IMG/VR virus record: IMGVR_UViG_2630968826_000003
Direction: 5' to 3' (one strand)
DNA from: an uncultured virus (IMG/VR IMGVR_UViG_2630968826_000003)
Lineage: Duplodnaviria > Heunggongvirae > Uroviricota > Caudoviricetes
Length of the DNA stretch: 64,000 nucleotides
Both the position numbers and the translations under genes were made by a program. Below, piece after piece: positions 6,793-48,230 of this stretch. The notes beneath the pieces are model-generated. The model saw only the letters and a program-made list of their open reading frames with translations. It made no database searches and had not been told where the DNA came from. How positions within the stretch are numbered: position 1 is the stretch's first letter; the number at the start of each line of letters is the position of its first letter.

Positions 6793-7443
6793 TCAGCGGC
6801 TGTCATTGCGCAGTCTGCGCTCCAGCTGCTGTTTGTCTTTTTTCACGCCACAGCGGGGATCAAGCTGTAACGCATGGTTGAGATGATTAAGGGCGGAAGC
6901 CGGATTGCTTTCACTCAGGACAGCGCCAATCGCTTTATGCAGACGCGCCCGTGACTGGTCCGGCATATCCAGACCGTCTGTCAGCTCCAGCGTCTGCAGC
7001 AACAGATCGGCATCAAAGCCGGTGGCGGCAAGCATTGCGCTCTGCGCGGCGTCTGCCATTTCCTCTGCCAGCACGGTCTGCACGTTGCGGTTACCCAGCG
7101 GCATCACCCAGCCATGACGCAGGGCATGACGCCCGATCTCCAGCGCCCCGGCATAATCTCCGGCATCAATGCGCCACAGCATCACGTACATCAGCACGTC
7201 ATCCTGTTGAGCGCCTCCGGCAGCCAGGACACCCTCTGCCCAGGCGGCGTACTTCGGCAGCAGCTCCACCTTGATTTCCGCTTTTTTGACCGTGGACTGA
7301 ACGCCCTTGAGACGGCGGCGGTCTTCCGCCAGTTGCAGCAGCATCAGGTCATAGCCCGATGCGTGGCGAACACTGCCGCCCTCGCGGGCGGCCTGTTCAG
7401 CCTGAACGCGCAGGCGATGCTGCCGTGCGGGACTCAGGCTCAT
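6793..7443 (-). CDS. M: Terminase small subunit M
   Basis: MSLSPARQH; MLWRIDAGD; DMPDQSRARLHK; GVKK. Confidence 0.93.
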   Translation of the reverse strand: MSLSPARQHRLRVQAEQAAREGGSVRHASGYDLMLLQLAEDRRRLKGVQSTVKKAEIKVELLPKYAAWAEGVLAAGGAQQDDVLMYVMLWRIDAGDYAGALEIGRHALRHGWVMPLGNRNVQTVLAEEMADAAQSAMLAATGFDADLLLQTLELTDGLDMPDQSRARLHKAIGAVLSESNPASALNHLNHALQLDPRCGVKKDKQQLERRLRNDSR

Positions 7444-7446
7444 GGA

Positions 7447-8505
7447 TTACGCTCCGGTTTCGGCTGCGGCGGCGCTGAAATCACCAATCTGGATGTTTTC
7501 CACCAGTGCGGCGCAGCGGTAGTCCTCAACCACATAGGCTTCATTAACGGATTCAAAGTTTTCAATCCGGTCACGTTTCGGGTTGTCGATAACTGAACGG
7601 CGGCGGGTGTCTTCCTGCCAGTAGATGGACAGGTTATCCAGACGGGTGATCAGCAGTGCATTCGGCGGGAAGAACGGCGCACGCACGGCCTGCAGGCCAC
7701 CCATGCGTTTCTGACTGATGATCATATCGGCAGCCAGTTTTTCACTGTTTTCCTGCTCTTTGTTGACCAGTGGGAAATACTTGTCAGACAACAGTTCACG
7801 ACCGCAAATCACCACCAGATCGTCATCGTCCTGGTAGACCACATCGATCAGCTCATTGACGGCATCCATCACCACGGCGTCCAGGTTGGCATATTCGCCA
7901 CCTTTCCCGACTTTCACCGCACCCGGTGTGGTTTCACCGCCCGTGGTGGTGCTGCCCATGACGTGATCCGGTGCATCTTCACGGATTTTCTGCAGCCAGC
8001 CTTTGTTCACATCCTGTAGCAGCGGGTTTTCGCTACGGTTGGAGGTTTTCGCACGCTTCACGCCGTTAAAGCCGATCATGATGCGGTCCAGAGCCTGACG
8101 TTTCACGATGGCGTCACGGATGCGCACCTGGAAATCCTGAAACTTCGCCCACAGGTCCAGCTTCGCGTAGGTCAGCACCGTGTCAAAGTTGGTCTGCTCG
8201 CATTTATATTCCACATCGACCATCAGCGTCGGATCGACAGGTTCACGCTCTTTCGCGGTGGTGTCAGTGGTTCCGGCAATGGTGCTGCCAACTCCCAGCC
8301 CCAGCAGCTGACCGGACTGCTCAGTCACTGGCGTGACGTTAATCAGCGTCAGGAAAGCGGCGGACTGCTGGATCTGGTCTTCCAGCGTCTGCTGCACAGA
8401 CGGCTCCACGGTGAACTTGCTGGACAGTTCTTCAACTGCCACACCGTTCAGACGCGCCAGCTGCTGCAGGTAAGCGTTAAAAGCAAAGCGGGTATTCTTC
8501 TTCAT
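7447..8505 (-). CDS. N: Major capsid protein N
   Basis: RQALDRIMIGFNG, NPLLQDVNKGWLQK. Confidence 0.95.
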   Translation of the reverse strand: MKKNTRFAFNAYLQQLARLNGVAVEELSSKFTVEPSVQQTLEDQIQQSAAFLTLINVTPVTEQSGQLLGLGVGSTIAGTTDTTAKEREPVDPTLMVDVEYKCEQTNFDTVLTYAKLDLWAKFQDFQVRIRDAIVKRQALDRIMIGFNGVKRAKTSNRSENPLLQDVNKGWLQKIREDAPDHVMGSTTTGGETTPGAVKVGKGGEYANLDAVVMDAVNELIDVVYQDDDDLVVICGRELLSDKYFPLVNKEQENSEKLAADMIISQKRMGGLQAVRAPFFPPNALLITRLDNLSIYWQEDTRRRSVIDNPKRDRIENFESVNEAYVVEDYRCAALVENIQIGDFSAAAAETGA

Positions 8506-8521
8506 CGGGTTTTGTGCTCCA

Positions 8522-9355
8522 TCAGCAATTGGTCAGAGTGTCAGCGGGGGCGTTACCGCCTGTTGCACGCTGGCGGTAGTCCTGGCGACTGTCTTCATGA
8601 CTCAGCTTGTCCACCAGTTCGTTAAAGGCGGTTTGCTGTGCCTGCAGGGCAGTCTCCAGCTCAGACAGGCGTTCTTCCTGCTCAGACAGGGATTTTTCGG
8701 TACGTGCGCTCAGGTTCTGCTGCTCAGTGGCGACCAGCTCCACGGCCTTATGCACATCAGAGAACCGGGCGTCATCGGACTGCTCTTTTTTGGTAAACAG
8801 CGCCGTGACGCGGGCAAACAGGGACGGTTTGTCGTCCTGGATTTCTTCCAGTTCGATCACCGTTTCCTCTGCAGCGGTAAAGAGATTGGCAGGATTCTGC
8901 TTGCGGTTTGCCAGCGGGTTATGGGCTGCACTGGCGCTGAATGTCAGAATTTCCGTACCCAGACTGGCAGGGTCATCAGTGGCAGCCAGGCCGACCAGAT
9001 AGGCTTTGCCCGTATCAGCGAACTTCGGGCTGACTTCCATAGAGGTGAATAATTTCTGGCCTTTTTTCACCAGTTCCACCAGGGACTCCGTTGGCTCAAC
9101 GTCGGCATACAGCGCCATCTTGCCTGCCAGCGGACCTTCCGTGATTTCTTCAGCAAACAGCGCCGTCACCTTGCCGTAGCGGTTAAAGGTGCTGTCCGGC
9201 AGATAAGACTTGATGTGCTCAAGGTTAATCAGCGCGGTATACACCGCCGGGTTGTAGCTGGCTGCCATCTGTTCCAGCCATTCACGCTGGATTTCGCGTC
9301 CGTCGGTGGTGGCACCTTCCACCCCGATGCGAAAACGCTTTGCTTTCACTGTCAT
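8522..9355 (-). CDS. O: Capsid scaffold/protease O
   Basis: FRIGVEGATTDGR, YLVGLAATDDPASLGT. Confidence 0.95.
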   Translation of the reverse strand: MTVKAKRFRIGVEGATTDGREIQREWLEQMAASYNPAVYTALINLEHIKSYLPDSTFNRYGKVTALFAEEITEGPLAGKMALYADVEPTESLVELVKKGQKLFTSMEVSPKFADTGKAYLVGLAATDDPASLGTEILTFSASAAHNPLANRKQNPANLFTAAEETVIELEEIQDDKPSLFARVTALFTKKEQSDDARFSDVHKAVELVATEQQNLSARTEKSLSEQEERLSELETALQAQQTAFNELVDKLSHEDSRQDYRQRATGGNAPADTLTNC

Positions 9356-9433
9356 GAGCCGTGCTCCGTTAGAAAAAACTTACTGGAGCCTTATGGTTGC
9401 GGTGATGGGGGCAGTGAAACAATGCGCGGTATT

Positions 9434-9451
9434 TGTACCGACAACCACACA
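9434..9451. promoter_or_regulatory. Ogr-type late activator site in the divergent O/P promoter region
   Basis: TGT-N12-ACA (tgtaccgacaaccacaca). Confidence 0.65.
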
Positions 9452-9497
9452 AACCGCAGGCGGGGAAAGCCTTCATTCAAGGCTGTAGGTTTGTGCC

Positions 9498-11264
9498 ATG
9501 AACACCACACTGACACCCGCAGATCTCGATCCCCGTCGGCAGGCCATGCTGCTGTACTTTCAGGGATACCGCGTAGCCCGCATTGCTGAAATGCTGGGCG
9601 AGAAAGTTGCAACCGTTCACAGCTGGAAAAAACGCGACAAGTGGGGTGACTATGGGCCGCTGGATCAGATGCAGCTCACCACCGCCGCACGCTACTGCCA
9701 GCTCATTATGAAGGAGCACAAAGAAGGGAAAGATTTCAAAGAGATTGACCTGCTGGCGCGCCAGTCGGAGCGCCATGCGCGGATCGGCAAGTTTAACAAT
9801 GGCGGCAACGAAGCCGACTTAAACCCTAACGTCGCCAACCGCAACAAAGGCCCGCGCCGTCAGCCGGAAAAGAACGTTTTCACCGATGAACAGATTGAGA
9901 AGCTGGAAGAAATCTTCCATTCCTCCATGTTCAACTACCAGCGCCACTGGTGGGAAGCCGGAAAAACCAACCGCATCCGCAACCTGCTGAAGTCACGCCA
10001 GATCGGCGCGACCTTCTATTTTGCCCGTGAAGCCCTGATTGACGCCCTGCTAACCGGGCGTAACCAGATTTTCCTTTCCGCCAGCAAGGCTCAGGCCCAC
10101 GTCTTTAAGCAGTACATCATCGACTTCGCCAAAGAAGTGGAGGTGGAGCTGAAAGGCGATCCGATGGTGCTTCCTAACGGGGCCACGCTGTACTTCCTCG
10201 GCACCAATGCCCGCACGGCCCAGAGTTACCACGGCAACCTGTATCTGGATGAATATTTCTGGATACCGAAATTCCAGGAGCTGCGCAAAGTGGCTTCCGG
10301 TATGGCTATTCACAAAAAATGGCGACAAACCTATTTTTCCACGCCATCCAGCCTGACACACAGTGCTTATCCGTTCTGGTCCGGTGCGCTGTTCAACCGT
10401 GGGCGCAACAAAGCCGACAAGGTGGACATCGACCTGTCCCACAGCAATCTGGCCCCCGGCCTGCTGTGCGCAGACGGGCAGTACCGCCAGATAGTCACCG
10501 TGGAAGATGCGGTGCGCGGCGGCTGTAACCTGTTCGACCTCGACCAGCTACGCATGGAGTACAGCCCGGACGAATACCAGAACCTGCTGATGTGCGAGTT
10601 CGTGGACGATCTCGCGTCCGTGTTCCCGCTTAGCGAACTGCAGACGTGCATGGTGGACAGTTGGGAAGTCTGGACCGACTTTCATGCACTGGCCCTGCGC
10701 CCGTTTGGCTGGCGCGAGGTGTGGATCGGTTATGACCCGGCAAAAGGTACGCAGAACGGCGACAGTGCCGGATGCGTGGTGGTGGCTCCGCCAGCCGTGC
10801 CGGGCGGTAAGTTCCGTATTCTTGAGCGTCACCAGTGGCGCGGGATGGACTTCCGCGCCCAGGCTGATGCAATCAAAAAACTGACCGAGCAGTACAACGT
10901 GACCTATATCGGCATTGACTCGACAGGCGTCGGTCACGGGGTTTATGAGAACGTGAAAGCGTTCTTTCCTGCCGTCCGGGAGTTTGTCTACAACCCCAAC
11001 GTTAAAAACGCTCTGGTACTCAAGGCCTACGACATTATCAGTCACCGTCGTCTGGAGTTTGACGCCGGACACACCGACATTGCGCAGTCATTCATGGCAA
11101 TCCGTCGCGCAACCACCGCCAGCGGCAACCGCCCGACCTATGAAGCCAGCCGCAGCGAAGAAGCCAGCCACGCCGATCTGGCCTGGGCAACAATGCACGC
11201 ACTGTTTAACGAACCGCTGCAGGGCGAATCCGCCAATACCAGCAATATTGTGGAGATTTTTTGA
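9498..11264 (+). CDS. P: Terminase large subunit P
   Basis: LKSRQIGAT Walker A, YLDEYFW Walker B, GYDP nuclease motif, HADLAWA. Confidence 0.95.
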   Translation: MNTTLTPADLDPRRQAMLLYFQGYRVARIAEMLGEKVATVHSWKKRDKWGDYGPLDQMQLTTAARYCQLIMKEHKEGKDFKEIDLLARQSERHARIGKFNNGGNEADLNPNVANRNKGPRRQPEKNVFTDEQIEKLEEIFHSSMFNYQRHWWEAGKTNRIRNLLKSRQIGATFYFAREALIDALLTGRNQIFLSASKAQAHVFKQYIIDFAKEVEVELKGDPMVLPNGATLYFLGTNARTAQSYHGNLYLDEYFWIPKFQELRKVASGMAIHKKWRQTYFSTPSSLTHSAYPFWSGALFNRGRNKADKVDIDLSHSNLAPGLLCADGQYRQIVTVEDAVRGGCNLFDLDQLRMEYSPDEYQNLLMCEFVDDLASVFPLSELQTCMVDSWEVWTDFHALALRPFGWREVWIGYDPAKGTQNGDSAGCVVVAPPAVPGGKFRILERHQWRGMDFRAQADAIKKLTEQYNVTYIGIDSTGVGHGVYENVKAFFPAVREFVYNPNVKNALVLKAYDIISHRRLEFDAGHTDIAQSFMAIRRATTASGNRPTYEASRSEEASHADLAWATMHALFNEPLQGESANTSNIVEIF

Positions 11265-12289
11265 TGGGAAAGAGTAAGAAGAACCGCGCTGCGGCGACGA
11301 AACAGCTCCAGCTTAAAAACCAGACTACAGCCGAAGCATTCAGCTTCGGCGATCCCGTTCCTGTTCTGGACCGCCGAGAACTGCTGGACTATGTGGAATG
11401 CGTACAGATGGACCGTTGGTATGAGCCGCCCGTCAGCTTTGACGGACTGGCGCGCACCTTCCGCGCTGCCGTGCATCACAGTTCCCCGATTGCAGTAAAG
11501 TGCAACATTCTGACCAGTACCTATATCCCTCATCCGCTGCTCAGCCAGCAGGCTTTTTCGCGTTTTGTGCAGGACTATCTGGTATTTGGTAACGCCTACC
11601 TGGAGAAACGCACAAACCGATTCGGTGAAGTTATCGCTCTTGAGCCTGCGCTGGCAAAATACACCCGACGCGGATTAGACCTGGATACCTACTGGTTTGT
11701 GCAATACGGTATGACAACCCAGCCGTATCAGTTCACGAAAGGCAGCATTTTTCATCTGATGGAACCGGACATCAACCAGGAGATCTACGGCCTGCCCGGC
11801 TATCTTTCTGCCATTCCGTCAGCCCTGCTCAACGAGTCCGCCACGCTGTTCCGTCGCAAGTATTACATTAACGGCAGCCATGCGGGCTTTATCATGTACA
11901 TGACCGATGCCGCGCAAAACCAGGAGGATGTGAACAACCTCCGCAACGCGATGAAAAGCGCCAAAGGTCCAGGCAACTTCCGCAACCTGTTTATGTACTC
12001 GCCTAACGGCAAAAAGGACGGGCTTCAGATCATCCCATTGTCAGAAGTCGCGGCGAAGGATGAATTTCTTAATATCAAGAACGTGAGTCGGGATGACATG
12101 ATGGCAGCGCACCGCGTGCCGCCTCAGATGATGGGGATTATGCCTAATAATGTTGGGGGGTTTGGGGATGTGGAGAAAGCAAGTAAAGTGTTTGTACGAA
12201 ACGAACTTATACCATTACAAAAACGCTTAGGAGAGATAAATGAATGGCTTGATAAAAAAATAATAGAATTTGAAATATATTCATTCTGA
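11264..12289 (+). CDS. Q: Portal protein Q
   Basis: QEIYGLPGY, FRRKYYINGSHAG, AHRVPP. Confidence 0.95.
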   Translation: MGKSKKNRAAATKQLQLKNQTTAEAFSFGDPVPVLDRRELLDYVECVQMDRWYEPPVSFDGLARTFRAAVHHSSPIAVKCNILTSTYIPHPLLSQQAFSRFVQDYLVFGNAYLEKRTNRFGEVIALEPALAKYTRRGLDLDTYWFVQYGMTTQPYQFTKGSIFHLMEPDINQEIYGLPGYLSAIPSALLNESATLFRRKYYINGSHAGFIMYMTDAAQNQEDVNNLRNAMKSAKGPGNFRNLFMYSPNGKKDGLQIIPLSEVAAKDEFLNIKNVSRDDMMAAHRVPPQMMGIMPNNVGGFGDVEKASKVFVRNELIPLQKRLGEINEWLDKKIIEFEIYSF

Positions 12290-12337
12290 TACATTTACAT
12301 CACTTAATAGGACATCCATCGCTCAACACATAATAAG

Positions 12338-24138: not shown

Positions 24139-24223
24139 AAATGAGTAAAACGGACAAACACAAGATAATACTAACTTACTGATTTTAAACGCAAGTTAAT
24201 GTTTTTGCTATAGTGAAAATGGT

Positions 24224-24268
24224 ATGTAGGAATTTCGGACGCGGGTTCAACTCCCGCCAGCTCCACCA
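24224..24268 (+). repeat. ssrA: att core: duplicated 3' end of ssrA (tmRNA), junction of prophage 1 and prophage 2
   Basis: atgtaggaatttcggacgcgggttcaactcccgccagctccacca, identical to 55900-55944; contains T-arm and CCA. Confidence 0.92.
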
Positions 24269-24638: not shown

Positions 24639-25398
24639 TTGATAGTAGATGCGCTAGGCAATCCCTTGGCTACGTCCCTCACTCCAAAAATGTTTGCTCA
24701 TTATCGGGATAAGCGTTTAACCGGAGAAATTTACTTCAGCGAAAAATGGAAAAACGGTGCCAGTCCTGTAACCGTTAATTTGGAGCAAAACTATTTAAGC
24801 GGTGCTTTTAGTGAGCTGATACGTTTGGGGGAATGGTTGCAACCTAACCCTCTTGAGAACATGCGTAAGTTCACCATAGCCGAAAAAGAAATGGCGTGGC
24901 TAACCCACGAGCAGATCGCAGAATTGCTTTATGATTGCCAACACCAGAACGAATTGTTAACGCTGGTAGTCAAGATTTGTTTAAGCACCGGCGCCCGATG
25001 GCGAGAAGCTGTAAACCTAACCAGATCGCAGGTGACTAAGTACCGCATTACTTTCACCAGGACTAAGGGTAAAAAAAAATAGAAGTATCCCTATCAGCAA
25101 AGAACTGTATGAAGAGATCACAGCGCTAAAAGGATTCAAATTCTTTGACGATTACTACTTTCAGTTTGCTTCGGTGATGGATAAAACATCCATCATTCTG
25201 CCTCGTGGACAGCTAACACATGTCCTGCGCCATACTTTCGCCGCTCACTTTATGATGTCCGGTGGCAACATACTGGCGCTTCAAAAAATACTGTGGCACC
25301 ATGATATAAAGATGACAATGCGTTACGCCCACCTAGCCCCAGATCACCTTGAAACCGCGCTGAGGTTCAACACGCTGGCAACAATGCAAGCGGCATAA
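24639..25398 (+). pseudogene. int: Remnant of a second P2/186-family integrase
   Basis: 5'-truncated; TGARWREA and HVLRHTFAAH present; frameshift in an A9 run (25071-25079, TKGKK/NRSIP); LGH changed to LWH. Confidence 0.9.
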
Positions 25399-25411
25399 CG
25401 ACCAAATATTA

Positions 25412-25441
25412 AAGGCCGCTGGAGGTGAACCCAGCGGCCTT
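25412..25441 (-). terminator. Terminator of the small-toxin mRNA
   Basis: 11-bp stem aaggccgctgg/ccagcggcctt just downstream of the 27-aa ORF. Confidence 0.7.
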
Positions 25442-25461
25442 ACTTACGTTTCCACGCTCAC

Positions 25462-25545
25462 TTAGAACCAGATCGCGCGAATCAGCTCAAGAAGGGCAGT
25501 TAGCGCCTTCAGAGCAATGATTGCAATATCTAAAATTGCTTTCAT
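25462..25545 (-). CDS. DinQ/TisB-like type I toxin peptide (27 aa)
   Basis: MKAILDIAIIALKALTALLELIRAIWF; resembles DinQ (ALLELIR) and TisB (DIAI..LK); GGGAG SD inside a hairpin; below the ORF-track cutoff. Confidence 0.8.
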   Translation of the reverse strand: MKAILDIAIIALKALTALLELIRAIWF

Positions 25546-25787
25546 CCGTTTGCTCCCAGAATAGGGAGCGCGTTTAGATGATTATACTCCTTACGTTGCC
25601 TGGATAATCACCCTCACTTCAAGTGTTAGTGGAAGTGTGACGCGCTCAAACCAAAAGTCTGACCCGACACCACTCGTAATCAGCCAGGGCTTATAAACAT
25701 TTCCGCAAGCCATGCAGAAAATTCGAATTCCTTTTCGAGTAGTAAGTACTTTGGCTTAGCATATGCGTCACGTCACTAACGCCTTGG

Positions 25788-25815
25788 ATTATAAGGTTAT
25801 GAGCGATTGTTTCAA
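25788..25815 (-). promoter_or_regulatory. sigma70 promoter of the toxin mRNA
   Basis: TTGAAA-16-TATAAT on the minus strand; predicted +1 near 25780. Confidence 0.7.
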
Positions 25816-25837
25816 CGAATAAGTAGTATTCAGACGT

Positions 25838-25870
25838 AAAAAAGCCCAACTGGTGAGGTTGGGCTTTTTT
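25838..25870. terminator. Bidirectional intrinsic terminator
   Basis: aaaaaagcccaac-tggtgag-gttgggctttttt. Confidence 0.85.
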
Positions 25871-25922
25871 ACAATCCTACTAGATTGGTAGTCTAGCGGG
25901 AAACGTCACACTTCCACTAACT
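25838..25922 (-). ncRNA. Candidate antitoxin sRNA (about 85 nt)
   Basis: TTGTGG-17-TAAACT promoter (25957-25929); 5' 18 nt perfectly complementary to the toxin leader (25625-25642); ends at terminator 25838-25870. Confidence 0.7.
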
Positions 25923-25996
25923 GCCTATAGTTTACTTACAAAACCGCTATACCACAACTCACATGTTATGTTCTAGCGATTCAGAATTTATAACCT

Positions 25997-26200
25997 AATG
26001 GCGACAAAATGGCGGCAGGCGTTACCACTCGTCACCCTTAGACGCCCCTAACCACCTTTGTAAGTTATTGAATATTAGGTAAGTGTTTGTTTTTCAAAAC
26101 CCATTTACATAAATGGTTTTTTTGTTGCCTAAAGACAAAAACAATTTAATTCAATATGTTAGGGCACAACCTTCATCGGAGTGGCGACGAAATAGCCACA
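25997..26200 (+). other. Relic attP-like region belonging to the decayed integrase
   Basis: TGGCGACA-type arm repeats at both ends, IHF-like sites (26061-26073, 26149-26161), central palindrome 26096-26121. Confidence 0.55.
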
Positions 26201-26223
26201 GAGGTAGTGCCTAATCTTAGTAA

Positions 26224-27342
26224 TTACAAGTCTTCCTCGTCAGGCCTATATTCTAATTCAAGCTCTCCGAAATCCATCGACGTTGGGCGCTCGATCACTT
26301 CCACATCGTCAACGGTCAAATCATCTATAGAACCCGATAAGTCTCCGGAGATTGTGATAAGTATTCTGGATGTATACGTTTCCTCAGCTCGCTTAGTAAT
26401 TGACCCCATGTACACGTGGTCTTTGTCACATGAATCGTAAACCGATAGGGAGAAATCCCCTTCTGCGTAAAGTGAAATTTCAGCGAATGCTTCTAAAACA
26501 ACCCAGTTTTCATCCTTATCAATAACAGTGAATTGATTATCTGAAAACTCAAAATCTTCAAACCCACCTGAGCATCCATCAGCCTCCCAATATAAATATG
26601 AATCTGCCTCTTGTTCTGGTGCAAACCCTTCAAAAGTTGACTCAAGGTGTACAGCAACATCATGCAAGAATTTACCGGCTTGTCCTTCATCAAGTGCTTT
26701 TTGTAAGTTATCAATTAGCTCATAAGGTGCGGTTTCTTCATTGAAGTGTGCTAAAGCGCTTGATAAGTCTGGTTCATAGTGCAGATTCTCAGCATCAACA
26801 CAAAATCTCTGCCAATCATCATCTCTTGCTACAGCAAGAACATTTTCACCATTCTCTTCAGCCCAAGCTTGGACAGCCATTAATGCTATGGCATCGGGAA
26901 ACTCATTTTTTTTCTTACCTGTATCCGCAAAAGGAGCTTCTGAAGAGAAATATCGCTCAAGGAGCTCAGGTACCGAAACATAATCCCCAGTGGTTAGAAC
27001 CTCCGCATCTGTGACAGCAACAAATCTGTCTAATCTGCTCTTTCCTAATCCTTCAACTTCTCTGCTTTCAATCAATGTTTTTTTTGCATCATTTAGTTCA
27101 CTTCCATCAAAAAAAAGGTGGTCGCCAGCTTCTTCGAAAGCTTTCTCAAGTGAGCCACGTGAAGTCTTGATTTTTCTTTCTAGATGATTTTTAACTTCAT
27201 TGTATATTACATCCGGTATCAAAAACGTCGTCGAAGTTCTGCTGAACTGGGAAAGCTTACCCAGCAGTCCTTTCTCAAGCTTTAATCCGTACTGATCGTA
27301 GATACTCGTATCTAGCAAGATCGCGGTGAATTTTTCAGTCAT
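26224..27342 (-). CDS. PIN-domain protein (DUF4935-like), candidate defence effector
   Basis: ILLDTSIY, VYNEV, APF...KKNEFPDA, VARDDDW acidic PIN motifs; acidic C-terminus. Confidence 0.75.
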   Translation of the reverse strand: MTEKFTAILLDTSIYDQYGLKLEKGLLGKLSQFSRTSTTFLIPDVIYNEVKNHLERKIKTSRGSLEKAFEEAGDHLFFDGSELNDAKKTLIESREVEGLGKSRLDRFVAVTDAEVLTTGDYVSVPELLERYFSSEAPFADTGKKKNEFPDAIALMAVQAWAEENGENVLAVARDDDWQRFCVDAENLHYEPDLSSALAHFNEETAPYELIDNLQKALDEGQAGKFLHDVAVHLESTFEGFAPEQEADSYLYWEADGCSGGFEDFEFSDNQFTVIDKDENWVVLEAFAEISLYAEGDFSLSVYDSCDKDHVYMGSITKRAEETYTSRILITISGDLSGSIDDLTVDDVEVIERPTSMDFGELELEYRPDEEDL

Positions 27343-42593: not shown

Positions 42594-43295
42594 TTACCCC
42601 TGCGTCAGTTTTCGGACACGTGCGGCAATGGTCTGCCGCGCTGTTCTGACGCCAATTTTTGAGTAGTGTTTTTCTGCGATGGCCAGCAAATGATCGGCTT
42701 TTTCCAGCGTTTCAATATCATCCACACCCGCAGCAGTTTGCTGGCCATCCTCATTGCGCAGCAGCTCCAGCCCCGCAAATTTGTACCACTTGGCTGTTAC
42801 CTGCTCATGCAGTCGCCATACCCCTGCCACACGTTCAAACGTACGGGAGAAATACGGCTCAATACTTTCTCCGCGCCCGGCGCTTTCCTGCGCCCATGCC
42901 AGCATCGTATCGGCCACAAACGTGGGAAAATTGCTGCGTAACTGATCCGGTGTGGCCTGTTGCTGACTGATTGCGATATCAGCCCATTCCAGCGCCTGAT
43001 CCAGCTCGCCCACGTCAAACAGCCAGATAACACACCAGGCAAATACCGGATTGGCGTACACCTGCTTGCTTTCCAGATACGCTTCAACAGTCGGTACCCA
43101 GCGCGGCAGCAACACATCCCTTTTAAACTCAATGCGATCCGCGATTGTCGGCAGGCTGCGTACGTGCCCCACATCCGTTTCCAGCGCTTTGACCAGAAGG
43201 TGCATACTTTCCGTGGTTTCCAGCGCCTGGCTTCGCTTCAGCTTTTGTTCCATCGCAATGCGCTGGCTGTGACGCTGCGCGGGAGAAAGTGCCAT
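42594..43295 (-). CDS. M: Terminase small subunit M
   Basis: LSPAQRH, VIWLFDVG, AKWYKFAG. Confidence 0.85.
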   Translation of the reverse strand: MALSPAQRHSQRIAMEQKLKRSQALETTESMHLLVKALETDVGHVRSLPTIADRIEFKRDVLLPRWVPTVEAYLESKQVYANPVFAWCVIWLFDVGELDQALEWADIAISQQQATPDQLRSNFPTFVADTMLAWAQESAGRGESIEPYFSRTFERVAGVWRLHEQVTAKWYKFAGLELLRNEDGQQTAAGVDDIETLEKADHLLAIAEKHYSKIGVRTARQTIAARVRKLTQG

Positions 43296-43298
43296 TTA

Positions 43299-44321
43299 TC
43301 AGCCCTCCGCTGGTTCGGAAACCTTGCCGATAGTTACGGCGGATTCATCAATGGCCGCATACAGTTCCGGCACTTCCACCGCATATCCTTCATTGCGCAG
43401 GTATTTGTTTTCGAACTGCTTACGGTCTTCCACAAACTCCGCCTTACGCATACGGGTATTGCGCTGGGTATAGATGTGCAGATTTTTCAGCGGCGTCACC
43501 ACCATGCGTTTTCCCGGCATAAAAGGCGGGATAATGGCCGGACGGCCAGCAATGGTATTCCCCAGCAACTGCGCTGCGATTTTTTCAGTCGGACGGTCTG
43601 CGGCCTGATACAGGCGATACTGTTCAGCAGCAACCAGATCAGCCCCCACCAGAACCACCAGACGCGGGTCATTGCGGAACTGCGCCGGAATTTTGGCGTT
43701 AATCAGGTCTGACGCCATTGCATCCAGTGATTTGTAATCCCCGGCTGCGTCCAGCACCACCGGATCGGTCATAATCTGATTGCCGCCCAGCAGCGTTTTC
43801 ATGCGCTCATGCCAGCCGATGTTCACATCTTCACCGTTCGGGTTAGCTTCGGGATCAGTGGTTTTTGCGCGGCTCTTACCGTTAAAGCCAATACGCAACA
43901 TATCCAGTGCAAAAGCCTGTGTGGTAAATGCCTGGACAAGGTTATAAAACTCGTTTTCATCCTTACCGGCGTTTGCCCAGACCGAAAGCAGATCCCAGCG
44001 CAACGCGGCGCAGCTGTCTGTTTCAACCAGTGAATAGTCGTTTCCGTCCACACCAACCTGGCGAATAAAACGGCCACTTTCACTACGTCCTGTGTGTAAT
44101 ACGGAAGAACCAACGGAAATCACCTGGCCACTCAGCTGATCAACATCCAGACAGGTAAGCATGTCCAGGAATTCGACGGATTCCAGCAGCGCAAGACGCA
44201 GCGCATTTTCCTGCGGGTTATTCAGGGAAAAATAACGGCTGGCATCACGCGCCCCAAACTGCTGCGCCATGCCCGCCGAATATCCGTCCAGTAATTCCCG
44301 CGCACGGTTATTAAGGTGCAT
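43299..44321 (-). CDS. N: Major capsid protein N
   Basis: ALDMLRIGFNG, NPNGEDVNIGW, NLHIYTQ. Confidence 0.92.
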   Translation of the reverse strand: MHLNNRARELLDGYSAGMAQQFGARDASRYFSLNNPQENALRLALLESVEFLDMLTCLDVDQLSGQVISVGSSVLHTGRSESGRFIRQVGVDGNDYSLVETDSCAALRWDLLSVWANAGKDENEFYNLVQAFTTQAFALDMLRIGFNGKSRAKTTDPEANPNGEDVNIGWHERMKTLLGGNQIMTDPVVLDAAGDYKSLDAMASDLINAKIPAQFRNDPRLVVLVGADLVAAEQYRLYQAADRPTEKIAAQLLGNTIAGRPAIIPPFMPGKRMVVTPLKNLHIYTQRNTRMRKAEFVEDRKQFENKYLRNEGYAVEVPELYAAIDESAVTIGKVSEPAEG

Positions 44322-44382
44322 AAAACTCCCTCGCGATTAAGCGATAATAAAAATATTTGAAACTAATCAGCGTTAAAGTGAA

Positions 44383-45186
44383 TTACAGGAAATTAAACTT
44401 TCCGGCTTTCTCTGAAATTTTGCGGCCTGGTGTACGGACTGATTTATTTCCCAAATCGTTAAAACGCTTAACGATATCTTTTGCATTATCACGAATGGCG
44501 GCAAATTCTTCTGTATCCACCACTTCCGCAATAGTATCCACATCACCCTGAACATCATTCAGTTGATTTTCAATTTTGGCCACACGGCCTTCCAGTTCGT
44601 TTACCGCGTTTGCCAGTGCCTGTAACTTATCATCACCCTGCGTGGTATCATCTGGCGGCGTTTCATCTTCAAACTTCGGTTTAATACCAAACAATTTTTG
44701 CCAGTTCTTCATTCTTTCTTCCTGTTTTATTTTTCCATCACGGGAAATTACACAGCCGTAATAACCCTGCTTAGATAATTTTTTGCGCCGACTGCTAAAG
44801 CGCAGCCGTGTGGTGCCAACACTGGCTGGCGTGTCTGTTACTGCCAGTCCTTTCAGGTAAGTCCGTCCGCTACCACGCCAGTTTTCTTCCGGCTCAATGG
44901 AGAAGAACAAAAGCTGATCTTCATGATTGGCGAAAATCAGACGTATATTCGGGCATAAACTGACATACAACCGCGCCAGTCCATCTTCACCATCATTCCA
45001 TGTGGCCTCCAGAACTTCGCCAAAATTGCCGTAATCGTCCTCATGCTCTGGCCAGATTAAAGCGACATAGTGGTTATAGTCATAGGTTTCCCCCATATCG
45101 ATAATCCACTGGCGTTTAATTATCCTGCCGTCAACGGTATCTCCTTCAGTAGCAACACACAGCCAGTCAGTTTTTAAATGTGACAT
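44383..45186 (-). CDS. O: Capsid scaffold/protease O
   Basis: VATEGDTVDGR, YLKGLAVTDTPASVGT. Confidence 0.92.
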   Translation of the reverse strand: MSHLKTDWLCVATEGDTVDGRIIKRQWIIDMGETYDYNHYVALIWPEHEDDYGNFGEVLEATWNDGEDGLARLYVSLCPNIRLIFANHEDQLLFFSIEPEENWRGSGRTYLKGLAVTDTPASVGTTRLRFSSRRKKLSKQGYYGCVISRDGKIKQEERMKNWQKLFGIKPKFEDETPPDDTTQGDDKLQALANAVNELEGRVAKIENQLNDVQGDVDTIAEVVDTEEFAAIRDNAKDIVKRFNDLGNKSVRTPGRKISEKAGKFNFL

Positions 45187-45346
45187 ATCCCCCCTGTTCC
45201 ACTTCCTGACGCTGCAAATCAATTATTGCCAAATAAAACCATTGCTGCATTACGTTTTATTCTGAACAGTTCGGATATAACGCTTTACCGAATGCAGACG
45301 AATTATCACCACCGTTTTTTTATTACAGCCACGGCATAATTACCGC

Positions 45347-47122
45347 ATGGCTAAATACTCTGAAGAATTAAAAGGCGTTGTCCGCGCACTTTATCTGCGC
45401 CGCTATACGCCAAAAGAAATTGCATCTGAATTAAATCTGCCGAATGCGCGGATAGTTTACTACTGGGCTGAAAAATACAGATGGGCTGATTTGCTCAGTT
45501 TTGAAAGCACTGAAGAGGCTATCGAACGCCGCTACCAGTTACTGGCCAGCCGGGATAACAAAACCGATCTCGACCTGAAAGAAATGGACATGCTCATTGC
45601 TCACGCCACAAAACTGCGTGCGCAAAGCAATAAGCATAAAGAAAAGATGGCCAGCGGTCAGAACTCCGGGCAGGCAGATGCGCGGGACAGCAATGATGAC
45701 GAACCCCGCCGCAAACGGAAATACAAGAAAAACGATATTTCCTCTCTGACCCAGGCGGATTTTGACACCTGGGCGGAAGAACATCTTTTTGAATACCAGA
45801 AACACCTGCGCCGGAACATTGGCCAGCTGGTCAGAAACATCCTCAAAAGCCGCCAGATAGGTGCGACCTGGTATTTTGCATTTGAAGCCTTTGAAAACGC
45901 GGTCATGACAGGCGATCCGCAAATCTTCCTGTCTGCCTCCAAAGTCCAGGCGGAATACTTCCGGTCTTACATCGTAAATATTGCTGAACAGTATTTCGGG
46001 ATCACGCTGACCGGCAACCCCATCCGCTTGTCCAACGGCGCGGAGCTGCGCTTCCTGTCCACCAACAAGAACACCGCCCAGTCCTACAGCGGCCACCTGT
46101 ACTGTGATGAATATTTCTGGGTTCCAAATTTCACAAAACTTAATGAAGTGGCCAGTGCAATGGCCACACATGACAAGTGGCGTACCACCTACTTTTCAAC
46201 ACCGTCAGCTAAAACTCACCAGGCGTACCCGTTCTGGACAGGCGATGAATGGAAACAGGGCAGTAAAAAACGTACTGCCATTAAGTTTCCGACCTTTGAT
46301 GAATTGCGCGACGGCGGGCGGGTTTGTCCGGATGGCCAGTGGCGCTACGTCATTACTATGGAGGATGCTATTGCGGGCGGCTTCAATCTGGCCAACATCG
46401 AGAAGCTGCGCAACCGCTACAACACAGCCACTTTCAACATGCTCTATATGTGCGTGTTCGTGGACAATAAAGATTCCGTTTTCAGCTTTTCCGACCTGGA
46501 AGCCTGCGGCGTGGAAGTGGATACCTGGCAGGATCATAACCCGGACGCCGCCCGGCCATTTGGTGACAGGCCAGTATGGGGCGGCTTTGATCCGGCTCGC
46601 AGCGGGGATTTGTCCTGTTTTGTGATTGTGGCGCCGCCGATGTTCGCCGTGGAGAAATTCCGCGTTCTGAAGGTGATTTACTGGAAAGGGATGAACTTCC
46701 GGTACCAGGCAAAGCAGATCGAGCAGCTGTTTAAAAAATACAACTTCACCTATCTGGGCGTGGACGTTACCGGTATTGGCCAGGGCGTTTTTGACAACAT
46801 TCAGCATTTTGCTATGCGTGTGGCCGTCGCCATTCGTTACGACCTGAACACAAAAAATCAGCTGGTACTGAAGGCGGCTGACGTGGTCGAAAGTCAGCGA
46901 ATTGAATGGGACAAAAACCTGAAAGAGATCCCGGCCAGCTTTATGTCCGTACGCCGCACAACCACGCAAAGCGGTAACGCCATGACCTTTGTTGCAGACC
47001 GCAGCCAGGACACAGGACACGCCGAAGCGTTCTGGGCGATAACCCACGCCCTGCATAACGAACCTCTGAACTATGAAAATAAACCTAAATCACGCTGGAA
47101 TTTAAGGAACAAGGCAGCATGA
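45347..47122 (+). CDS. P: Terminase large subunit P
   Basis: LKSRQIGATW, YCDEYFW, GGFDPAR. Confidence 0.95.
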   Translation: MAKYSEELKGVVRALYLRRYTPKEIASELNLPNARIVYYWAEKYRWADLLSFESTEEAIERRYQLLASRDNKTDLDLKEMDMLIAHATKLRAQSNKHKEKMASGQNSGQADARDSNDDEPRRKRKYKKNDISSLTQADFDTWAEEHLFEYQKHLRRNIGQLVRNILKSRQIGATWYFAFEAFENAVMTGDPQIFLSASKVQAEYFRSYIVNIAEQYFGITLTGNPIRLSNGAELRFLSTNKNTAQSYSGHLYCDEYFWVPNFTKLNEVASAMATHDKWRTTYFSTPSAKTHQAYPFWTGDEWKQGSKKRTAIKFPTFDELRDGGRVCPDGQWRYVITMEDAIAGGFNLANIEKLRNRYNTATFNMLYMCVFVDNKDSVFSFSDLEACGVEVDTWQDHNPDAARPFGDRPVWGGFDPARSGDLSCFVIVAPPMFAVEKFRVLKVIYWKGMNFRYQAKQIEQLFKKYNFTYLGVDVTGIGQGVFDNIQHFAMRVAVAIRYDLNTKNQLVLKAADVVESQRIEWDKNLKEIPASFMSVRRTTTQSGNAMTFVADRSQDTGHAEAFWAITHALHNEPLNYENKPKSRWNLRNKAA

Positions 47123-48180
47123 GTAAAAAGAAACACTTCATTAAGCGCGACCAGCGCGGCGATAAGTCAAAAAAAATGAGCATCATTACGTTCGGCAAAC
47201 CGGAACCGGTTCTGACCACTGGCACCGACTACCGGGATATCTGGTACGACAATGCCGCCGATCATTTTACTCAGCCAATTGACCGGCTGGCACTGGCACA
47301 ACTGATTAACCTTAACGGTCAACATGGCGGTATCATCCACGCCCGTAAAAACATGATTGTGTCTGATTATCTGTCTGGCGGCCTGACTTACGACCAACTG
47401 GAAGCCGCAGCTTTTGACTACATCACATTTGGGGATATTGCGCTTGGAAAAATTCGTAACGGATGGGGAGATGTGATCGGACTGGAACCCTTACCCGGCC
47501 TCTATATCCGACGCAGGAAAGACAGGAACAACGCAACTGATCAACCTGGTGATTACGTGGTGTTACAGGAAGGCGAACCGCAGATATGGCCTGAAGAAGA
47601 TATTATCTTCATCAAAATGTATGATCCGCAACAGCATATTTACGGACTGCCGGACTACATCGGCGGCGTACATTCTGCATTACTCAACAGTGAAGCGGTC
47701 ATTTTCCGTCGCCGTTACTACCACAATGGCGCCCACACTGGCGGCATTCTCTACACGCGCGATCCCAGCATGACGGATGAAATGGAAGAGGAAATTGAAC
47801 AGCAGCTGCGTGACAGCAAAGGGATCGGCAACTTCTCCACCATCCTGGTAAACATTCCCGGTGGAGACGGTGACGCCATCAAATTCATTGAAATGGGGGA
47901 TATTTCCGCTAAGGATGAATTTGCCAACATCAAAAATATCAGCGCCCAGGATATTCTGAACGCGCACCGTTTTCCTGCCGGGCTTGCCGGCATTGTCCCG
48001 CAAAATACTGCCGGACTTGGTGACGTAGAAAAGGCCGAACGGATTTATAAAAAAAGCGAAGTCGCCCCTGTTCAGCGCCGGTTTATGATGGCCGTAAACA
48101 ATGATCCAGAAATACCGGAAAGGCTACACCTTAACTTTGATTTAAGTTACGCAGAATCAACGGATAAGGGTGCAGCATGA
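47119..48180 (+). CDS. Q: Portal protein Q
   Basis: QHIYGLPDY, FRRRYYHNGAHTG, AHRFPAGL. Confidence 0.95.
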   Translation: MSKKKHFIKRDQRGDKSKKMSIITFGKPEPVLTTGTDYRDIWYDNAADHFTQPIDRLALAQLINLNGQHGGIIHARKNMIVSDYLSGGLTYDQLEAAAFDYITFGDIALGKIRNGWGDVIGLEPLPGLYIRRRKDRNNATDQPGDYVVLQEGEPQIWPEEDIIFIKMYDPQQHIYGLPDYIGGVHSALLNSEAVIFRRRYYHNGAHTGGILYTRDPSMTDEMEEEIEQQLRDSKGIGNFSTILVNIPGGDGDAIKFIEMGDISAKDEFANIKNISAQDILNAHRFPAGLAGIVPQNTAGLGDVEKAERIYKKSEVAPVQRRFMMAVNNDPEIPERLHLNFDLSYAESTDKGAA

Positions 48181-48230
48181 GTCAAAAAAGGCTAAAATCC
48201 AGGCATCATTTAACAGCTGGAGCATGGAAT

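Follow-up and report, generated by a model that had tools for sequence, protein, structure and literature searches.

The trans-encoded type I toxin-antitoxin loci of enterobacteria are marked by a divergent antitoxin gene. In the accessible part of a 2014 review (PMC4147584), tisB/istR-1, shoB/ohsC and zorO/orzO are described as divergent pairs, and the available text of PMC3567139 has agrA and agrB running opposite to dinQ. T1TAdb, as far as its accessible description goes, places the asRNA 5′ of the mRNA without overlap and accepts only pairs in the 'correct orientation'. The control of dinQ, as presented in the portion of PMC5066626 available, is based on masking: a 5′ 'sequence 1' of the mRNA masks a 'sequence 2', 5′ processing frees sequence 2, which opens the SD hairpin, and agrB replaces sequence 1, so that sequence 2 is masked again and the SD hairpin closes, the duplex being cut by RNase III in vitro. 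The same portion of that paper (Kristiansen et al. 2016) names the dql genes. On plasmid pOXA-48, dqlB/agrB is an addiction module with a DinQ-like toxin, a trans-acting agrB and a 35-nt pairing in the 5′ UTR, and compensatory mutations prove that the pairing between agrB and the DqlB mRNA is needed (PMC12365149, in its accessible part).

Here, we describe a DinQ-like locus that lacks the divergent gene: its sRNA gene lies upstream of the toxin gene and on the toxin strand. The locus was found in the window, by which we mean the whole 64,000-nt stretch of DNA analysed, taken from an uncultured virus record. We think it likely that it is a working trans-acting antitoxin sRNA in tandem with a DinQ-like toxin.

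Anatomy and surroundings of the locus

The elements follow each other on the minus strand in the order weak promoter, ~84-nt sRNA, intrinsic terminator, strong promoter, target-bearing leader, 27-aa toxin and terminator. The locus has an exact 18-nt inverted repeat, formed by GTTAGTGGAAGTGTGACG at 25625-25642 (plus strand) and its exact reverse complement at 25904-25921. Searched for with up to 3 mismatches, the 18-mer occurs twice in the window; 100 shuffles gave 0.07 on average and never as many as 2. The sRNA promoter (25929-25957) consists of the −35 TTGTGG (25957-25952), a 17-nt spacer and the −10 TAAACT (25934-25929), and went unlisted by the promoter scan because it agrees with the consensus at only 7 of 12 positions. 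Comparison of 14 tandem loci speaks for it, since the TTG of the −35 is kept in 13 and the TAnAnT of the −10 in all 14, at fixed spacing and with a variable spacer sequence. About 7 nt past this −10 begins the arm GTTAGTGG... of the predicted ~84-nt AgrB-like antitoxin sRNA (25838-25921), for which a covariance model (R1, see below) and the fold (−27.4 kcal/mol, z −3.48) suggest ends at ~25921 and ~25838. It would comprise a 5′ recognition arm (25904-25921, GTTAGTGGAAGTGTGACG as RNA, the exact complement of 25625-25642), a small hairpin and the terminator. The terminator, identified by repeat search and fold at 25836-25872, is a two-way hairpin with 15-nt arms, a 7-nt loop reading CTCACCA on the sRNA strand, a stem of 13-15 bp and a T6 tail. 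It escaped the terminator scan, probably because its A-run is paired with the T-run and is thus taken for stem.

A tandem arrangement needs a promoter between the sRNA terminator and the target, and the promoter scan places a near-consensus TTGAAA-16-TATAAT there (25815-25788; 11 of 12 consensus positions), whose TATAAT-like −10 and TTGA-like −35 are kept across the tandem loci. The toxin mRNA is predicted to span 25781-25412 (start deduced from the −10) and to consist of a ~235-nt leader, the ORF and a terminator. The leader carries the putative sRNA target, CGTCACACTTCCACTAAC (25625-25642), 80-97 nt before the ATG at 25545, which is recognised by complementarity, duplex energy and covariation. 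An SD GGGAG (25557-25553) precedes the ORF (25462-25545) of the 27-aa peptide MKAILDIAIIALKALTALLELIRAIWF, and the terminator (25412-25441), detected by both terminator scan and repeat search, has 12 pairs of which 8 are G-C. The preliminary description of the locus had given the coordinates of the 18-mer and its complement, the minus-strand TTGTGG-17-TAAACT, a terminator at 25838-25870, a target about 80 nt before the toxin start and an sRNA unit upstream of the toxin, co-directional with it and closed by its own terminator. Apart from slightly wider terminator limits we recovered each of these structural elements, and all are supported by comparative evidence; the target ends precisely 80 nt from the ATG. 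The toxin promoter was absent from that description and, together with the sRNA terminator, it separates the two arms.

The peptide resembles DinQ. It matches the NCBIfam model NF041472 (toxin_DinQ) with 25.4 bits and E 1.3e-5, below the equivalog cut-off of 30, and it has no Pfam match; its ALLELIR core is common to annotated DinQ and Dql peptides. A blastn search of complete E. coli genomes returned 10 records in the 60-80% identity band, and the loci matched are 69-71% identical to the window; among the four records opened, H1, H6 and H8 are unannotated at this place and H10 is an annotated dinQ, to which the DNA identity is ~70%. From this search, from an alignment of tandem loci (A2) and from a tree with 35 other loci, the conserved long 5′ UTR was recognised by an AAGYCCTGG box, GGTGGTGC, a CAGGCA and the SD hairpin, together with a conserved 3′ motif past the stop codon. 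Given that dinQ proper is an SOS gene, LexA control of the toxin promoter was considered and rejected for absence of the operator: no CTG-N10-CAG box of LexA type occurs at the toxin promoter, and the sole match in 25400-26000 falls within the toxin terminator. Two overlapping minus-strand ORFs (25591-25713 and 25691-25849) were also dropped, having no family matches.

The remaining 217 blastn records match only a 42-nt piece of the sRNA terminator, which is found on more than 200 E. coli plasmids. On the IncF plasmid p1658/97 of E. coli, this piece belongs to an AgrB-like sRNA (L040:710-794, minus strand; R1 70.7 bits). On the divergent-toxin side of that sRNA there is no dql toxin within ~500 nt, the place being taken by a CGCCTTTAA repeat run, and the sRNA may be an orphan antitoxin.

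The locus sits in a low-GC stretch (41-43%) between blocks of ~52-58% GC. Directly upstream of the module and on the same strand, 26224-27342 encodes a protein of 372 aa whose N terminus carries a PIN_12 domain (E 6.5e-33). On the other side, a phage-type integrase is split into two plus-strand ORFs (24639-25082 and 25174-25398), a break indicating that the island may be decaying. A 3′ fragment of tmRNA was matched at 24179-24268 with 30.3 bits, below the gathering score, and ARAGORN found no whole tmRNA gene; the segment 24179-25398 (plus strand) resembles the border of an element that integrated at ssrA. The relatives examined in E. coli and Citrobacter adjoin a phage Gp27-family gene. With such surroundings, the module appears to travel with mobile DNA. 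Elsewhere in the window, two blocks of ORFs (6800-12300 and 42600-48200) are similar in size and order, have ~55% GC each and possibly represent two related prophages. G001, the nearest virus record, has 40% of the window's sampled words in common and is without the locus, and the phage collection searched gave no match.

Four RNA-library runs of one study also contain the stretch, as contigs that reveal neither strand nor start nor end, and three of these runs have it all in one contig. In the run X4, the contig over 25550-26220 has a depth of 1993 while its neighbours have 196 (up to 25532) and 12.7 (from 26238), a weak hint that the locus is well represented in RNA, bearing in mind that DNA can be present in such libraries. 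This deep contig extends ~260 nt past the predicted sRNA promoter (25960-26220) and reaches the stop codon of the PIN_12 gene; the contig that holds this gene is the one with a depth of 12.7. The segment 25960-26220 has a hairpin at 26096-26121 and no Rfam match.

Homologous sRNAs in two layouts

To compare the sRNA with known antitoxins we used R1, a covariance model built from an alignment (A1) of 15 sRNAs that are all encoded divergently from their toxins; its E-values are rough, owing to a short calibration. R1 finds 25839-25921 on the minus strand over its full length (model positions 1-86 of 86) with 51.6 bits and E 1.5e-13. In the opposite orientation it scores 21.5 bits, because the terminator is two-way. 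Of 17 other tandem-clade loci searched, 16 likewise have their best R1 match on the toxin strand; for the remaining one, the degenerate L037, none was listed. Therefore, we see in the sRNA a homologue of AgrB with its gene turned round with respect to that of the toxin: by sequence, the gene is the same in tandem and divergent groups, and what differs is its orientation with respect to the toxin. Tandem and divergent sRNAs also have the same terminator loop, CTCACCA on their own strand. In Rfam, AgrB (RF02891) covers its full length on the minus strand of the window with 26 bits and E 0.24, short of the gathering score of 40, one of three sub-threshold minus-strand matches over 25833-25920 (AgrB 26, OrzO-P 28.7 and OhsC 25.8 bits). 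As a control, the Rfam AgrB model was run on five divergent loci of the R1 set, where it passed its gathering score every time (52.9-91.8 bits) and always on the non-toxin strand; at E ≤ 0.1 it found none of the three tandem loci tested.

How widespread is this layout? Relatives were collected by BLAST (L001-L007) and by scanning genome contigs with a pattern made from two motifs conserved around the ORF (32 loci), a search motif that biases the sampling; L018, L025 and L035 were dropped as chance pattern matches without a DinQ-like ORF. In each locus we looked upstream for a direct or an inverted repeat of the leader segment −150 to −30. With a direct repeat, the complementary RNA must be encoded opposite the toxin, in the classical divergent way; with an inverted one, it is encoded on the toxin strand. 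The repeat of the target box is direct in 19 loci, and inverted in the window and 14 others (10-34 nt exact). Two more, L015 and L037, have no exact repeat match though they belong to the tandem group by sequence; L015 pairs through G-U wobbles at −68 kcal/mol. The co-directional layout is thus common to 17 loci including the window and recurs in related bacteria of the gut and of insects; the sources include Photorhabdus, Xenorhabdus, Cedecea, Serratia, Erwinia, E. coli and also an IncF plasmid. By family, the group covers Morganellaceae, Yersiniaceae, Enterobacteriaceae and Erwiniaceae, besides an IncFIC plasmid and a MAG with the label Advenella.

The toxin-mRNA core, from ATG-150 to the terminator, served for a maximum-likelihood tree with 36 rows; L002 was not included, its repeat arms and toxin peptide being those of L001. 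The 17 tandem and the 19 divergent rows fall on either side of a single branch (support 99/98), and one change of layout is therefore enough to account for them. A starred group of 8 in this tree unites the window, a Cedecea locus and the E. coli/Citrobacter/Erwinia type. Outside the motif selection, BLAST of one Photorhabdus genome gave two further head-to-tail copies, which R1 matches on the toxin strand; their arms differ, and the same-strand duplexes reach −53.1 and −49.2 kcal/mol vs ~−24 for the best on the opposite strand. In 401 sampled genomes of the GTDB order around Photorhabdus, a sample that says little about the enteric families, a match (E ≤ 1e-5, two candidates scored per genome) was seen only in the centre genome.

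Some of these relatives deserve a comment of their own. In Photorhabdus luminescens G002 (L042:700-1960), two head-to-tail sRNA-toxin units lie ~850 nt apart and encode identical toxin peptides, each with its own matching arm and target. These paralogues look mutually independent, and since each has its own recognition sequence, several independent copies could coexist in a genome. In the degenerate tandem locus of Xenorhabdus littoralis (L037), −110 to −60 from the ATG, the sRNA promoter and the arm GTTAGTTGAAGAGTAAC run straight into what normally comes after the target; the locus has lost the sRNA body, the terminator and the toxin promoter, and with them the greater part of the leader. In Photorhabdus khanii (L022), between −550 and −290 from the ATG, an additional terminator and an additional, incomplete toxin leader stand between sRNA and toxin, in a sequence containing N's. 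Just past the 3′ end of the tandem dql locus of Cedecea davisae lies a CyaR sRNA gene (L026:1373-1457, plus strand; 99.9 bits).

The preliminary description had named covariation in homologues as a check on the pairing, and this check came out in its favour. Alignment A2 takes 14 tandem loci from the sRNA promoter to the ATG and pairs the first 22 sRNA positions with the target; it leaves out L004 (the same E. coli-type locus), L022 (for its N's and duplication) and the degenerate L037. Over the 22 pairs and 307 cells of the duplex, 98.7% are standard pairs, against 27-42% in controls where the partner was slid by 1-3 columns. Compensatory changes on both sides occur in 12 of the 22 pairs (42 cells), and none of 500 shuffles reached any of the five measures. 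The cells that are not Watson-Crick, which do not count as independent events, comprise 15 G-U, 3 A-C and 1 other. Because a G-U on this strand is an A-C on the other, the excess fits RNAs of the toxin strand and speaks against mere uniformity of the DNA. In the window, arm and target match at 18 of 18 positions, and RNAduplex extends the duplex, with wobbles and one bulge, to −43.1 kcal/mol. Perfect pairing stops at 18 nt in the window, compared with 22-34 nt in its relatives, and the family duplex has mismatches there at pairs 20 and 22.

Leader folding, possible mechanism and rival explanations

The predicted toxin mRNA folds at −134.5 kcal/mol (z −4.78). In the minimum-energy and centroid folds of 25781-25408, its 5′ end GUUAGUG..GUGACGC is predicted to pair with the target region, and in the predicted primary transcript the SD GGGAG is held in a hairpin with CUCCC. 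This prediction matches the published architecture of the +1 dinQ transcript, whose 5′ end lies on an internal antisense site and whose SD is in a hairpin. GAGCG (25647-25643) adjoins the target, and the longer GAGCGCG (25647-25641), which overlaps it, complements the CGCGCTC just upstream of the SD hairpin. The switch of DinQ type was not reproduced by folding: in the full-length mRNA and in six 5′ truncations, the GGGAG had a P(unpaired) of 0.00, and it stayed paired, with the same P(unpaired) of 0.00, when the target was blocked in all seven mRNA forms.

A model of the module can nevertheless be proposed by homology to dinQ/agrB. It would be a type I toxin-antitoxin system of the DinQ/AgrB (dql) family, with a presumably toxic hydrophobic peptide of 27 aa whose mRNA would have a long and structured leader. 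The antitoxin would be an AgrB-homologous sRNA of ~84 nt, expressed from its own weak promoter and ended by its own terminator, its gene immediately preceding the toxin promoter and sharing its direction. With its first 18-19 nt (up to 22 with wobbles and one bulge), this sRNA would pair in trans with the leader 80-97 nt before the start codon, on a stretch that may also pair with the mRNA's own 5′ end. By analogy with dinQ/agrB, binding of the sRNA would keep the SD hairpin closed and create a substrate for RNase III, and the toxin would thereby stay untranslated; SD closure, block of a standby site, RNase III or a mixture of these are the candidate routes of repression. Transcript ends, action in trans, the consequence of the pairing and toxicity are thus what we infer; the anatomy, the homology of both RNAs, the flipped orientation with its conservation in a clade and the covarying duplex are what the sequences show.

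Could the same sequence be explained otherwise? Both arms are on one strand, and covariation fits pairing in trans and pairing in cis within a read-through transcript equally well. The arm might then be the 5′ end of one long toxin transcript from ~25921, with no separate sRNA, in which the hairpin would act as an attenuator and cis pairing would lock the leader. The modelled read-through RNA (25921-25530) has −136.7 kcal/mol and z −6.81, an arm-target helix predicted at 19 bp closes its minimum-energy and centroid folds, and the RNA contigs cover the whole region. We nevertheless consider this very unlikely in view of the near-consensus, clade-conserved promoter between terminator and target, of a terminator with a 13-15-bp stem and T6 tail, and of the target-pairing 5′ end that the toxin mRNA already possesses. 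Moreover, the sRNA is homologous over its full length to sRNAs on the other strand in 19 related loci, where pairing is hence possible in trans only. An explanation at the DNA level, in which the repeat serves as substrate for an inversion of ~260 bp carrying the toxin promoter or has been kept uniform by gene conversion without any RNA role, would agree with repeats that are inverted, 18-34 bp long and placed on either side of the toxin promoter, and with the L037 deletion, which joins the sRNA arm to sequence 3′ of the target. It is made extremely unlikely by the differences between the arms, which are mostly toxin-strand G-U (15 vs 3 A-C and 1 other), as RNA pairing, unlike DNA identity, predicts, by the arms of relatives that still pair despite wobbles and bulges, by the lack of reported joints in the contigs of the four RNA-library runs and by the fact that no recurring recombinase gene was seen beside the loci whose annotation was read.

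The sRNA might also be real but have its main role elsewhere, as an anti-addiction decoy against incoming dql toxins or as a leftover in a decaying island. Its weak promoter, a duplex shortened to 18 nt, the broken integrase and the IncF plasmid that carries an AgrB-like sRNA without a dql toxin within ~500 nt point in this direction. Nevertheless, the 18-mer fits the cognate leader perfectly, paralogues in the same genome each match their own toxin, and in the window the toxin ORF, SD, promoter and terminator are all intact, all of which makes such a role highly unlikely. A trans-acting antitoxin encoded in tandem with its toxin remains our preferred reading, and to it a layer of cis control might be added: transcription reading through the sRNA terminator would let the antitoxin arm fold onto the target of the same molecule, a self-silencing that would make the tandem geometry functional rather than accidental to an inversion. 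We regard this addition, suggested by the modelled fold, as tentative and rather unlikely. If it were true, the efficiency of the terminator would help to set the toxin-to-antitoxin ratio, as would polymerase coming from the sRNA promoter and crossing the toxin promoter ~25 nt downstream.

Comparison with known systems

The preliminary description was right that IstR-1, OhsC, OrzO and AgrB are encoded divergently from their toxins, in agreement with the accessible parts of PMC4147584 and PMC3567139. Its comparison with IstR-1 and tisB stands as an analogy, in that the target is distant within the 5′ UTR, and fails as to family, which is DinQ/AgrB (dql). According to the available part of PMC4147584, tisB/istR-1, shoB/ohsC and zorO/orzO share with the window a separate, non-overlapping sRNA that pairs far upstream in a long 5′ UTR. 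The toxin of the window showed no homology to toxins of TisB, ShoB or ZorO type in our searches, and these three systems, all described as divergent, are not its family. The resemblance of the window to OrzO-P (28.7 bits) and OhsC (25.8 bits) in Rfam is sub-threshold and covers the 3′ part including the terminator.

Within the dql family, the closest published relatives of the toxin gene are, by sequence, dqlA4, dqlA11, dqlA13 and dqlA16 (Kristiansen et al. 2016), which have the tandem-clade target GAGCGCG...CTAAC and peptides of the clade type (PMC5066626, Supplemental Fig. 4). The sequences in that figure begin at the toxin −35, and agrB is marked for dinQ only. The pOXA-48 dqlB belongs to another toxin subgroup than that of the window, and the plasmid loci L005 and L006, with MGAFIDK and MGALIDK toxins, have the divergent layout.

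Why would an antitoxin of this kind have gone unrecognised? With a co-directional gene, prediction based on orientation would miss or misassign it throughout this clade, and the Rfam AgrB model also fails to reach the tandem-clade sRNAs tested; for both reasons, the four published dqlA toxins probably have an unrecognised antitoxin. In the literature searched, whose reach stopped short of many subscription papers, we found no co-directional type I antitoxin, nor did we find in it a published description of the antitoxin of the tandem-clade dqlA toxins. Within the reach of this search, the tandem layout, which is both real and conserved, is undescribed.

The accepted working of type I systems is left unchanged by this layout. 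Tandem and divergent loci constitute a natural experiment, with the same two RNAs in two geometries, on whether orientation matters for toxin control, and the effects to compare are terminator read-through, promoter occlusion and cis pairing. In this respect, dinQ/agrB (and agrA) of E. coli K-12 is the system against which the window is best read. Both have a ~27-aa hydrophobic toxin with an LELIR motif, a leader that folds, by prediction in the window, its 5′ end onto an internal site, and an sRNA of ~85 nt, likewise predicted in the window, whose 5′ end is complementary to that internal site and is followed by a terminator. The differences are that the perfect duplex has ~31-34 nt in dinQ/agrB and 18 nt in the window, that the LexA-type box is not at the toxin promoter of the window, and that the sRNA of the window is encoded upstream of its toxin and in the same direction.
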